Positions 59,455 to 62,277 of a DNA stretch of 64,000 nt are shown here, in pieces; within the stretch, counting starts at the first letter, position 1, and every line of letters begins with the position of its first letter. Under the pieces are notes generated by a model. That model saw only the letters and a list, made by a program, of their open reading frames with translations, ran no database searches and was not told the DNA's origin. Origin of the DNA: Pseudomonas phage HHBS47_1; sequence record PQ287649.1; one strand, written 5' to 3'. The translations under genes were made by a program, and so were the position numbers.

Positions 59455-62277
59455 TTAAAAGAGTGAGAGAACACTCCGGGAGGTATACAAGGAATGGGTT
59501 TCAGGTTCATCCCCTATATCAAACATTTCTTGGCCGGTGATATTACCCAACAACTCATGACCCTGTTCTTTACTCATAAGAATGTCCACTTGTTCCTTAG
59601 ACCATTCCATGATGTTAATACTGCGGGTCATAATGTTGAGTTTATCCCCGGTGTCCATATCCAAGAGTTTAAAGTAACAGGGAGCATCCTGGCCAGTACG
59701 CCAGGTACGGGCTTGGACCTGTTTCACTTCATACTCCCGGAAAGGCGCATTCAACAGAATGGTCAGGTTCGCCATAATCAAGGGATACCCTTCCTTCAGG
59801 GAATCAAAGATCGCAATCAACGCACGGAGAGTGGGGTCTTTCTCAAAGCGTTTGATATTGGCGTCTCGTTCACTGCTGTTTTCACCGTATACTGTCACAT
59901 TCGGATACCCGACCTTCGTGAGGTATTCTTCACAGAGTTTAAGGGCGTCCACGTAGGAGGTAAAGATCAGAGTCTTCTTCTCCACGTTATCGATGAGCTC
60001 AGGGAGTCCTGCGTGCGCAATGGTGTCCTTAATAGCGTTAATACGGGCTCGTCCTAAAACGTTCCCTAAGGCCTCTCCACGCAGTTTTAGACCCAAGTAC
60101 TTAACCGCAGACTTAATGTTCCTGAAATCCTTCAGGGCGGTCCCTTTAAGGCCCTTCTCGATGTCTTCTTCCACCCGCTTACAGAACTGACTGTCTTGGT
60201 TATCCGTAAAACTGTTATACCCCCGGGTTCTGAACCGGTGAACAATCTGTTTGTACTTCAACAGATTCTCAACCGCTTTAGCATTCCCCTGGATGGACAG
60301 TTCATACGACGTCAGAACATCGTTGTAGAATTCCAAGAAGCTCGGCATGTGTTTCGTATAGAACGCAATCCGTTCTCCAATGTAAATCTGCATTTGGAGG
60401 CGAATAGCATCCAAGGTGTATTGATCCGAATTCGGGATCTTTACCTTAACCAGTTCCATAGGAGGAGGATCGCCCAATCCCACCAGTTCAGGGATCGTAA
60501 ACTTCATACGTCCAATACGCCGGCTCAGCAAATCCATTAACGAGGGACGGTTACGTCCATAGGACGCCATAAAGAACTCCCGAGCCTTCTTATCGAAGTA
60601 GGGATCGATCATACAAGTCGTTGGGAAGATCTCACTCCCCTGTGCCTTTAGCGGGGTCCCGGACATCGGAAGGTGATGCCCGAACAGTTCCATGTCGCAC
60701 CATTCGATCAACTTCCGTGTACGGGCTGCTTTAGGGTCATTGAAGTTCTGGGATTCATCCAGAATCATCTTCAAAGCGCCTTTATGCTTCTTACTCAGCG
60801 TAATGAGGAAGTTCTCCAAGTATTTCCCCATAACACTGGTCATGTAATCGTAATGGACGATGTAGAAGTCATACCCTTCTTCTAAGACCTTACCGCTGAT
60901 ACTGGTCCAGATACGGGGTGGAACCTTAAAGTGCTGGAGGGGTTGTTCTACCCAGACTTTATCCACAATGTTCATAGGGCAAAAGACAACCGTCGGAGCT
61001 GTATTGATCAATTGAGACCACGCCAAGGACGTAAAGGTATTGTGGGTCACGATGTAGTCATCCACCACATACAGCTTCTCGTCATTATCCAAGGCAATGC
61101 AGCAAGTCTCTTGATTCTCCACTTTCTCCCAGTGTACTAGCTTCAGTTGCAGGTCTTCATACTGGGAGAAGTTATACATTCCTTGAATACGGGGATTGTC
61201 TCCAATTAACCCAGTCATCATCTTGTCGACGTCTCGGTGCTTAAAGTCAACCTTATACAAACCGTTAACCAACACTGGCTCCGTAGCTGTTCCTCCAATG
61301 GACCACATTAACCGACGGAAGTTCTCCATCCCAATCCGGTTCTCGTGATACGCGGATAAGACGGATTCACTGATTAAACACCCCACGTGTTCAATCACCG
61401 ATGTGACTATATTAAAGCGATCCCGATACGGGAACTCCAATACGTTGTCCCCTATTACAACGTCGGTATTGACCAGCTCCCTTGCAGCGGCTTCAGACGA
61501 AGTATTACAAGGGACGCTGTATCCATTGATCTCACCCACTAAGGGGAAGTACACGTCCTCTTTACGGGCTTTATGGAGTACTTCCAACGTGGTTAAGATT
61601 TCATCGATCCCATTCACCGTGGTTTTCCACAAATGATACGGATGAGAGTCAGCCGTTCTACCGTCTTCGAAATAGAAGCGATAAACTTCCGTGATCCCCT
61701 GAGGGTAAATACTCTCCACACACGCGGTATCACCTCCAGGGGTCACTACGATATCCTTGACCTTCAGGTCACCCAAGGCTTTCCACCCATTTGGGACTTT
61801 AACCCGGGTTGAGAGAGGCATGGCTTTCCCTGAACCTGGTTTAGCATCCAGCAGCATCCCTTTCAAGTGATAACTGTTCACAATGATCGGGTATTGCTGA
61901 AGAAAGTCCAACTGCTGAGGAAAGGGAACTGTGTTGAACTGATTCAGTTTCTTAAGATCAAAAGGTTTACCTCCCGGATTAACCGTATCTTTAATCCAGG
62001 TCTCGGTTTCAATGAGTTCCTTCAGTTCACTCAACGCTCGTCTGCGGGTACGAAGGTTCCGTATTTTGAGGAGTTCCCCCACAATGTGGTGCAATTCTAC
62101 CAGGAAGAAGTTATGCACCTTAATGGTGTCCCAGGATTCGCGTCGAATCTGATGTTTCGTTAAGAGAGAAGTGCTGTAGAACTTCTCAATGTCTTTGGCT
62201 AAATCGTAATAGGACACACCCGTAATGTGTACGTAGTCTCCCGTTTGTTTTATCTTAACTGAAAACAGTCCTAACAT
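59455..62277 (-). CDS. SNF2-family (SF2) helicase/ATPase interrupted by an intein in the Walker A motif (940-aa precursor)
   Basis: Helicase motifs: I ..LLDAKPGSGK|..|TFTSLAWS (split), II ILDESQNF, VI QVQARTWRTGQ. The 262-aa insertion is flanked so that excision restores GSGKT. Confidence 0.75.
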   Translation of the reverse strand: MLGLFSVKIKQTGDYVHITGVSYYDLAKDIEKFYSTSLLTKHQIRRESWDTIKVHNFFLVELHHIVGELLKIRNLRTRRRALSELKELIETETWIKDTVNPGGKPFDLKKLNQFNTVPFPQQLDFLQQYPIIVNSYHLKGMLLDAKPGSGKAMPLSTRVKVPNGWKALGDLKVKDIVVTPGGDTACVESIYPQGITEVYRFYFEDGRTADSHPYHLWKTTVNGIDEILTTLEVLHKARKEDVYFPLVGEINGYSVPCNTSSEAAARELVNTDVVIGDNVLEFPYRDRFNIVTSVIEHVGCLISESVLSAYHENRIGMENFRRLMWSIGGTATEPVLVNGLYKVDFKHRDVDKMMTGLIGDNPRIQGMYNFSQYEDLQLKLVHWEKVENQETCCIALDNDEKLYVVDDYIVTHNTFTSLAWSQLINTAPTVVFCPMNIVDKVWVEQPLQHFKVPPRIWTSISGKVLEEGYDFYIVHYDYMTSVMGKYLENFLITLSKKHKGALKMILDESQNFNDPKAARTRKLIEWCDMELFGHHLPMSGTPLKAQGSEIFPTTCMIDPYFDKKAREFFMASYGRNRPSLMDLLSRRIGRMKFTIPELVGLGDPPPMELVKVKIPNSDQYTLDAIRLQMQIYIGERIAFYTKHMPSFLEFYNDVLTSYELSIQGNAKAVENLLKYKQIVHRFRTRGYNSFTDNQDSQFCKRVEEDIEKGLKGTALKDFRNIKSAVKYLGLKLRGEALGNVLGRARINAIKDTIAHAGLPELIDNVEKKTLIFTSYVDALKLCEEYLTKVGYPNVTVYGENSSERDANIKRFEKDPTLRALIAIFDSLKEGYPLIMANLTILLNAPFREYEVKQVQARTWRTGQDAPCYFKLLDMDTGDKLNIMTRSINIMEWSKEQVDILMSKEQGHELLGNITGQEMFDIGDEPETHSLYTSRSVLSLF
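61039..61824 (-). mobile_element. Intein (262 aa) inserted between Lys and Thr of the helicase P-loop GSGK/T
   Basis: The N-terminal block resembles Hint block A (AMPLSTRVKVPNGWKALGDLKVKDIVV, cf. C-x-x-x-G-T-R-I..G..I.DL..GD.V) but with Ala at position 1. It ends ..VVDDYIVTHN, followed by Thr(+1), which is the P-loop Thr. The internal ~130 aa may be a degenerate homing-endonuclease region. Confidence 0.6.

Follow-up and report, generated by a model that had tools for sequence, protein, structure and literature searches.

The window, a 64,000-nucleotide stretch of Pseudomonas phage HHBS47_1 (PQ287649.1), contains a helicase gene whose Walker A loop is broken by 262 residues lying exactly between GSGK and T, and the GSGKT motif is complete only once these residues are taken out. 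This locus raises the question of whether the insert is an intein, by which route it would leave the protein, and what has kept it in place.

The interrupted helicase and its insert

The gene shares 97.5-97.9% nucleotide identity with its counterparts in 7 EL-like phages; it belongs to a Pseudomonas phage EL-like jumbo phage, and is the orthologue of gp166, in line with the EL annotation. Deposited annotations describe EL gp166 and its relatives as a single 940-aa "DNA helicase" or "DarB-like antirestriction" protein. The EL intein is presumably listed in InBase under "PhiEL Helicase", the 2005 EL genome paper is said to remark on intein-associated endonucleases, and a literature search combining phiEL or EL with intein returned nothing relevant. 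The spliced sequence matches the phrog_62 DNA helicase (2e-116) and contains the elements of an SF2/SNF2-like helicase, namely a Walker A GxGKT, a DExx motif II and a Helicase_C domain with motif VI (Table 1). An earlier note, made from the letters of the window, had assigned the exteins to the SNF2 family and stated that removal of the insert restores GSGKT upstream of motifs II and VI. The latter was borne out, and the family assignment is supported by a match to the SNF2/Rad54 structure 1z63, weak by direct sequence (E = 5.6e-5), together with PF00176 matches recorded on orthologues. Since the exteins of intein-bearing genes show dN/dS values of 0.05-0.07, the interrupted helicase is taken as a working gene.

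Table 1. Features of the interrupted helicase gene, in window coordinates; residue numbers of the insert count from its first residue
Feature	Position	Strand	Remarks
Helicase precursor gene, phage EL gp166 orthologue	59455..62277	minus	940 codons + TAA (ORF list)
N-extein, residues 1-151	61825..62277	minus	ends in first Walker A half (GSGK); aligns with intein-free RisingSun gp211
Predicted class 3 intein, 262 aa, protein residues 152-413	61039..61824	minus	29.7 kDa
N-terminal splicing (Hint) region, intein residues 1-75	61600..61824	minus	blocks A and B
Block A Ala1	61822-61824	minus	codon GCC; aligned to DnaBi1 Ala1; invariant
Block B His61	within 61600..61824	minus	
Block B His64 (B:10)	61633-61635	minus	HMMER alignment to Msm DnaBi1 (6BS8) His65; invariant
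Block B Trp66 (B:12)	61627-61629	minus	HMMER alignment to 6BS8 Trp67; invariant
Degenerate homing-endonuclease region, intein residues 76-215	61180..61599	minus	
Second LAGLIDADG motif remnant, VTSVIEHVG	61381..61407	minus	aligned to LQGLMDTDG of FishSpeaker/PhiPA3/BUCT660 inteins
Val147	61384-61386	minus	replaces catalytic Asp
C-terminal splicing region, intein residues 216-262	61039..61179	minus	blocks F and G; aligned to 6BS8
Block F Cys242 (F:4)	61099-61101	minus	aligned to 6BS8 Cys118; invariant
Block G Thr260 (G:5), His261, Asn262	61039-61047	minus	aligned to 6BS8 Thr137/His138/Asn139
Thr+1 (Thr414), putative C-extein nucleophile	61036..61038	minus	also Thr of restored GSGKT; aligned to DnaBi1 Ser+1
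C-extein, residues 414-940	59458..61038	minus	includes Helicase_C domain (Pfam, 1.9e-8)
Motif II, DESQ	60748-60759	minus	in C-extein
Motif VI, QARTWRTGQ	59689-59715	minus	in C-extein

Searches of the EL intein with Pfam and NCBIfam HMMs gave zero intein or Hint matches; both libraries are blind to this element, and the Hint-domain HMM check proposed in the earlier note would have failed. The insert nevertheless has a Hint fold in which splicing blocks A, B, F and G can all be recognised, and its signature residues align one by one with those of Msm DnaBi1 (Table 1), in which their roles have been described (PMC6195587). It ends in VTHN followed by T, that is, His-Asn with one of Ser, Thr or Cys at +1, and this junction, like all the splicing residues, is invariant in 53 relatives (52-98% identity), while neighbouring positions vary. 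Intein-less alleles, for which the earlier note had recommended a search, were found in related phages: gp211 of Erwinia phage RisingSun, the nearest outgroup (54% identity), reads GSGK/TFLSLIW, in most of 205 phage homologues G[ST]GK runs straight into T, and P0058 (687 aa) is likewise uninterrupted. The identification of the insert as an intein is borne out by its Hint fold and its sequence, by orthologues that lack it and by the His-Asn/Thr junction.

Position 1 is Ala, with no Cys, Ser or Thr nucleophile, B:10 is His64, and the Trp (B:12)-Cys (F:4)-Thr (G:5) triplet that defines class 3 inteins (PMC2807308, PMC3196547) is present as W66, C242 and T260. Because this WCT triplet is both present and invariant, the intein can be assigned to class 3. 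Class 3 inteins form a monophyletic clade, to which the insert may belong; the solved mini-inteins closest to it are class 3 or WCT-engineered. The "class 2/3-like" mechanism previously deduced from Ala1 was rightly called non-canonical and narrows to class 3. Thr+1 also stands as the C-extein nucleophile, although in class 3 it acts second, and the first nucleophile, Cys242, had been missed. Intein and extein do not differ in GC or GC3, which points to long residence. These results make it very probable that a class 3 intein has long resided in the Walker A loop of an EL-type virion-associated SNF2-like helicase.

The middle region and the intein-only genes

The middle of the intein corresponds to one LAGLIDADG subdomain, with a helix at residues 133-146 followed by a beta-beta-alpha-beta-beta-alpha succession. 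With hhalign, VIEHVG was placed on LMDTDG, and subdomain 1 proved to be short of about 90 residues, the first motif among them. Compared to the orthologous PhiPA3 intein, which matches Pfam LAGLIDADG_3 (2.5e-11) and exceeds the cut-off of intein_Cterm, the EL intein has no Pfam LAGLIDADG match. An active LAGLIDADG endonuclease has two subdomains, each with a catalytic Asp or Glu; here only subdomain 2 is left, and its catalytic Asp is replaced by Val, in agreement with the earlier suggestion of a degenerate homing endonuclease. The nuclease that once spread the element would thus be dead through loss of a subdomain and of the catalytic Asp, and the intein, fixed in the EL clade, would be inherited vertically. 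The middle domain of helicase-borne inteins is under purifying selection, with a dN/dS of about 0.12 rather than about 1.

In related genomes, genes of 270-309 aa encoding the intein only are found at the syntenic locus, with the exteins deleted on both sides. About a third of EL-clade genomes have such a gene at the helicase locus (6 of the 21 EL-clade IMG/VR contigs), and these genes are placed at several points in the intein tree; extein loss seems to have happened several times. Contigs with such genes include IMGVR_UViG_2162886007_000107, ERZ15186071 NODE_9 and ERZ27252354 k141_1094476. The catalytic residues (Ala1/His/Trp/Cys/Thr/His/Asn) are kept in most of them, even where the +1 residue is Gly or Leu, and in many of these copies splicing is impossible. 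One intein-only subfamily that diverged after extein loss shows dN/dS values of 0.04-0.07. Modelled with AF2, the intein-only protein P0239 folds like the helicase-borne intein; proteins of the P0239 type carry a 20-residue N-peptide and a GDC tail.

An assembly artefact was ruled out as the origin of these genes by the many independent samples, contigs of 219-244 kb and diverged subfamilies. In the intein-only copy L009, flanks and intein have diverged about equally from L011 (about 81-82% nucleotide identity), which also speaks against an artefact. The dN/dS between L009, a recently derived copy, and helicase-borne inteins tells nothing, with dS at about 1.1-1.4 and the divergence mostly older than the deletion. 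At the intein-only loci, tblastn in all frames found no frameshifted or nearby C-extein within 2.5-8 kb. Two independent IMG/VR pattern scans found no helicase elsewhere in intein-only genomes, with imperfect sensitivity (one missed a known positive and the other recovered 9 of 15), and absence of the helicase from whole intein-only genomes is suggestive only.

Because the catalytic residues are mostly kept and dN/dS is 0.04-0.07 in intein-only copies, a function of the intein protein's own is suggested. We regard it as plausible, while leaning slightly the other way, that the EL-clade intein encodes a selected function that needs Hint autoprocessing chemistry and not splicing, which would be a domestication in a prokaryotic virus that retained the splicing domain and not the nuclease. 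The intein-only protein might act via a Cys242 thioester that releases or transfers a short N-peptide. A stronger form, in which the element is kept mainly for this function as a domesticated Hint plus half-LAGLIDADG protein, splicing rescue is secondary, and the intein of the window is a helicase-embedded copy of a gene able to stand alone, is possible but doubtful. The syntenic intein-only genes with their several tree positions, retained catalytic residues, low dN/dS and shared fold all favour it, as does the constraint on the middle domain, but this constraint could merely reflect folding needed for splicing. Moreover, all helicase-borne copies show strict conservation of Thr+1 and of the exteins, as expected if splicing matters there, and DNA binding is disfavoured by the acidity of the intein (pI 5.0; middle domain 5.3). 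A main role of this kind is compatible with a class 3 intein.

An intein without a nuclease should in theory decay or vanish; the EL intein outlasts the gene it invaded and is still under selection, and its maintenance after helicase loss in related phages is unexpected. Whereas the helicase intein is of value mainly for the correct annotation of EL gp166 and its relatives, in which standard HMM pipelines overlook it, the intein-only genes matter more. If confirmed, they would point to an unrecognised function of Hint autoprocessing domains in jumbo phages.

Splicing or permanent insertion

For the helicase-borne class 3 intein, we infer that splicing does occur, and by the class 3 route; the mechanism is proposed by homology with characterised class 3 inteins. 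The Cys242 thiol, positioned and activated by His64, Trp66 and Thr260, would attack the Lys151-Ala152 bond, placing the N-extein on Cys242 as a branched thioester, from which it would be transferred to the hydroxyl of Thr+1. Cyclisation of Asn262, aided by His261, would then free the 29.7-kDa intein, and an O-to-N acyl shift would produce a Lys-Thr bond, leaving from the 107.9-kDa precursor a helicase of 78.2 kDa in which the GSGKT P-loop is whole. Before splicing, the ATPase site could not form. Two mature products probably arise from gp166, the virion-associated SNF2-like helicase of 78 kDa and a free intein of 30 kDa. The Asp-N peptide expected across the ligated junction is DAKPGSGKTFTSLAWSQLINTAPTVVFCPMNIV, whereas trypsin would cleave at the junction itself.

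Conserved catalytic residues alone do not prove that splicing takes place, because intein-only relatives keep the intein with no helicase to restore. The insert could instead be permanent, an inactivated intein or ordinary loop domain with which the protein works or the helicase is dead, and the silence of the intein HMMs, the degenerate endonuclease and the annotation of the frame as one 940-aa helicase would fit. This is nonetheless very improbable, and an ordinary loop domain was rejected: 262 residues between GSGK and T would disrupt the phosphate-binding loop, strong purifying selection acts on the exteins, the splicing residues are all invariant over 53 lineages amid variable neighbours, and many orthologues lack the insert entirely. 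[quoted passage not shown]

Relation to known inteins

Class 3 inteins, described in 2010, are found in DnaB, RecG, SNF2 and terminase proteins, where most of them sit in an ATPase P-loop, and phages are among their hosts (PMC2807308), so the EL intein, though correctly recognised and unannotated, belongs to a kind already known, and its novelty had been rated too high. Full-size orthologues of it, in PhiPA3 (gp233), PS119XW, Serratia phage BUCT660 and Shewanella phage FishSpeaker, occupy the identical G[ST]GK/T point of the orthologous helicase and share its HLW, TQC and VTHN/T signature, with Ser at position 1 in PS119XW. These are, however, 345-355 aa long with both LAGLIDADG motifs intact (LGVILGDG, LQGLMDTDG) and scattered among intein-free relatives, as active homing predicts, whereas in the EL clade the intein (233-272 aa) has become fixed, with neither subdomain 1 nor the catalytic Asp left. 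The helicase site therefore offers a natural series, from empty through a full intein with intact endonuclease and a half-endonuclease fixed in a clade to an intein without its host protein, against which the homing-cycle model can be tested.

The mycobacterial DnaB mini-inteins Msm DnaBi1 (PDB 6BS8) and MchDnaB-1 (6RIX/6RIY) reside in a RecA-type hexameric DnaB and not in an SF2/SNF2 helicase, have an unstructured linker in place of the folded LAGLIDADG half-domain, and carry Ser rather than Thr at +1 and Asp rather than His61 at B:7, a position that is Asp or Ser in characterised class 3 inteins. The Deinococcus radiodurans Snf2 and mycobacteriophage Bethlehem DnaB inteins, also hosted by SNF2 or phage helicases, are the class 3 inteins that have been characterised by experiment, and they splice through a block-F branched intermediate. 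Class 3 inteins have been proposed to be phage-derived (PMC2807308, PMC3196547).

PI-SceI, the VMA1 intein, differs in being class 1 with an active two-subdomain nuclease. The yeast HO endonuclease has retained nuclease activity and lost splicing; the phage intein-only proteins are the opposite, their nuclease being gone and the splicing-type catalytic residues mostly kept. The class 3 "intein pseudogene" Arth_1007 of Arthrobacter FB24, of phage origin and with tiny exteins of 52 and 14 aa, is a single, inactive case without His B:10 and Cys F:4 that was read as decay (PMC3196547). Compared to Arth_1007, the EL-clade intein-only genes mostly have a complete set of catalytic residues; they fall into diverged subfamilies, with dN/dS values of 0.04-0.07.

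An intein in the Walker A loop of the helicase

The window derives from a Pseudomonas phage EL-like jumbo phage of the genus Elvirus, and its 2,823-nt helicase gene shows 97.5-97.9% identity to seven deposited EL-type genomes. It is the counterpart of EL gp166 (YP_418199.1). The product names shown for it in the EL and the seven EL-type records, namely 'putative ATP-dependent helicase domain', 'DNA helicase' and RefSeq's 'DarB-like antirestriction', make no reference to an intein. On one side of the helicase gene lies a gp167-like gene that is transcribed divergently from it, on the other a gp165-like gene that runs in its direction; the TTG listed as the start of the gp167-like gene shares one base with the helicase ATG and is unlikely to be the true start.

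The junctions of the ORF read LLDAKPGSGK / AMPLSTRV...YIVTHN / TFTSLAW, and the earlier note, which described an intein splitting GSGK/T of an SNF2-family helicase, was right in every detail; removing the 262 residues restores GSGKT. The resulting 678-aa protein, with GSGKT, DESQ and QARTWRTGQ, matched the phage helicase family phrog_62 (2e-116), and its nearest solved structures were SNF2/Rad54 helicases (1z63, E = 5.6e-5). By tblastn it matched 205 phage records, including Erwinia phage RAY, whose orthologue gp131 is a capsid-packaged SF2 helicase graded accessory, not core, by its authors (PMC10299810). The helicase is one uninterrupted piece in the closest outgroup, Erwinia phage RisingSun gp211 (54% identity; GSGK-TFLSLIW contiguous in the alignment), and in most other matches, phiKZ included; intein-less alleles, proposed earlier as a check, are therefore present in related phages.

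The curated Pfam and NCBIfam models run on the insert gave no match. Inteins among PDB sequences matched both of its ends by phmmer (6RIZ, 1.5e-6; 6QAZ, 5.6e-4; 6BS8, 1.5e-3), and the insert was also similar to PHROG families in which terminases, helicase loaders and primases bear inteins (6e-12 to 6e-8). The insert is an intein of an already known kind, correctly identified and of modest novelty, which we take to be probably the InBase entry 'PhiEL helicase'.

The RefSeq name is also carried by many unrelated intein-containing phage proteins (helicases, the large terminase of phage Eowyn, the PhoH-like protein of SCTP-2), in precisely the stretch that the intein matches. The label seems to track the intein rather than its host protein; on EL gp166 it is probably an annotation artefact. 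Searching with the intein by tblastn gave 3 matching places in EL (NC_007623.1), phiRU, IR-QUMS-PaBa1 and MIZ-Pa99 versus 1 in GXNNE2/GXNNA8, which indicates two further intein-like segments in EL-type genomes that vary between strains; no second match better than E = 0.3 was found inside the 64-kb window.

Coordinates of the helicase, its intein, neighbouring genes and related genes (L numbers, related loci)
Feature	Locus	Coordinates	Strand	Remark
Helicase precursor ORF	window	59455-62277	-	940 aa
Intein	window	61039-61824	-	exactly 262 aa; residues 152-413
gp167-like gene	window	62277-63473	+	listed TTG start at 62277
gp165-like gene	window	58382-59437	-	
Helicase CDS, PS119XW	L006	1986-5135		
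Intein-only gene	L008	162-1025		
Intein-only gene	L009	954-1883		
Intein-only gene	L014/L015	8001-8840		
Intein-only gene	L016	8001-8813		
Intein-only gene	L098	592-1428		
Intein-only gene	L099	3919-4743		
Intein-only gene	L109/L110	2519-3352		
Intein-only gene	L115/L116	2447-3274		
Intein-only gene	L120	2480-3337		
Intein-only gene	L121/L122	6001-6828		

Class 3 residues and a decayed endonuclease

Class 3 inteins lack Cys, Ser or Thr at position 1, carry Trp B:12, Cys F:4 and Thr G:5 (the WCT triplet), and use the block-F Cys as first nucleophile (PMC2807308, PMC3196547, PMC7664689); a recent survey counted 287 in actinobacteriophages (10.1101/2025.01.02.630785). HMMER alignment to the class 3 intein Msm DnaBi1 (6BS8; residue roles from PMC6195587) paired A1, H64, W66, C242, T260, H261 and N262 with its A1, H65, W67, C118, T137, H138 and N139. 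Among 53 metagenomic EL-clade helicases (52-98% identical, 912-952 aa) the insert was present in all 53, always with Ala first and a THN/T end, and these seven residues were invariant while adjacent positions, such as C241, varied. The mechanism suggested earlier from Ala1, 'class 2/3-like', is supported and narrowed to class 3 by the WCT triplet, whose absence class 2 requires. Like that of DnaBi1, the +1 residue (first of the C-extein) is the P-loop Ser/Thr that is to coordinate Mg-ATP in the mature enzyme.

Selection was estimated by the Nei-Gojobori method on 17 non-independent pairs of EL-clade genes (dS < 1.2, mostly high). The dN/dS values of the N-extein (0.053) and C-extein (0.068) indicate a working gene despite the interrupted P-loop, the best indirect support for the predicted splicing; the N- and C-terminal splicing regions gave 0.051 and 0.070, and the middle domain, the nuclease remnant, 0.121, a constraint that is looser yet far from neutral.

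Same-junction inserts with a shared HLW / TQC / VTHN/T signature occurred in five orthologous helicases (PhiPA3 gp233, PS119XW, Serratia phage BUCT660, Shewanella phage FishSpeaker and Vibrio phage 2 TSL-2019). Four of the five were 345-355 aa long with both LAGLIDADG motifs (LGVILGDG, LQGLMDTDG), and the PhiPA3 intein matched Pfam LAGLIDADG_3 (2.5e-11) and scored above the NCBIfam intein_Cterm cut-off. Judged from these sequences, the centre of the EL intein is one half of a LAGLIDADG endonuclease that is no longer active, which bears out the degenerate homing endonuclease proposed in the earlier note. We consider it highly probable that the intein is splicing-competent, belongs to class 3 and has a dead endonuclease. 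Nuclease-bearing copies are dispersed among empty sites in other chimalliviruses, and the EL clade carries the intein as a fixed element with a nuclease predicted to be inactive, a pattern that fits the homing cycle; intein GC and GC3 equal those of the extein, which points to long residence.

In Pseudomonas phage PS119XW the intein starts with Ser, not Ala (GTGK/SLRLDADIK), and retains HLW, TQC and VTHN/T, a rare WCT intein also with a position-1 nucleophile.

Genes reduced to the intein

Among the EL intein's closest relatives are 270-309-aa proteins that are almost entirely intein, encoded at the syntenic helicase locus (after gp169-, gp168(DUF7194)- and gp167-like genes) with both exteins deleted. 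They accounted for 6 of 21 IMG/VR EL-clade contigs, the other 15 carrying helicase plus intein, and several lay on 219-244 kb contigs. No extein was detectable within 2.5-8 kb, and two pattern scans, both of incomplete sensitivity, found no EL-type helicase elsewhere in these contigs. DNA comparison of L009 with its 228-kb relative L011 revealed two clean deletions on either side of the intein, one in frame (helicase codons ~18-145) and one taking everything past Thr+1, and divergence was much alike in flanks and intein (about 81-82% nt identity). Intein-only genes fell at about five separate places among helicase inteins in a neighbour-joining tree built without support values, one nested 0.08 from helicase-borne copies, which suggests that exteins were lost repeatedly. 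A downstream gp165-like gene is absent in L008 and L014 and present in L009 and L121.

The largest intein-only subfamily has an N-peptide of 17-20 residues (41 in the protein P0240), a GDC, GEC or SDC tail and +1 Gly in all members but one; a second has +1 Leu, and certain members end in THS*, VHS* or VTR* without a C-extein. A1, H61, H64, W66, C242, T260, H261 and N262 are kept in most members; in P0141, His B:10, Cys F:4 and the first two residues of THN are gone. In the AlphaFold model of P0239 (pLDDT 87.7) the architecture is the same and the N-peptide is disordered; PI-SceI and class 3 inteins matched the model best. The largest subfamily diversified after the exteins had been lost, and dN/dS values within it were 0.07 (about 100 synonymous vs 38 nonsynonymous differences) and 0.04 (30 vs 4). 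That these genes are pseudogenes is rejected. Simple DNA binding is disfavoured by the acidic pI of 5.0, and the catalytic set persists even where no splicing is possible, which suggests selection for self-cleavage or thioester chemistry.

Between L121 and L122 the intein-only gene had a dS of 0.94, two to five times that of four neighbours (0.19-0.49), suggesting that it has a history of its own, for instance through recombination or phage-to-phage exchange.

An intein outliving its host gene is a lead worth following; the one comparable report we found, the Arth_1007 'intein pseudogene', is a single and inactive case (PMC3196547).
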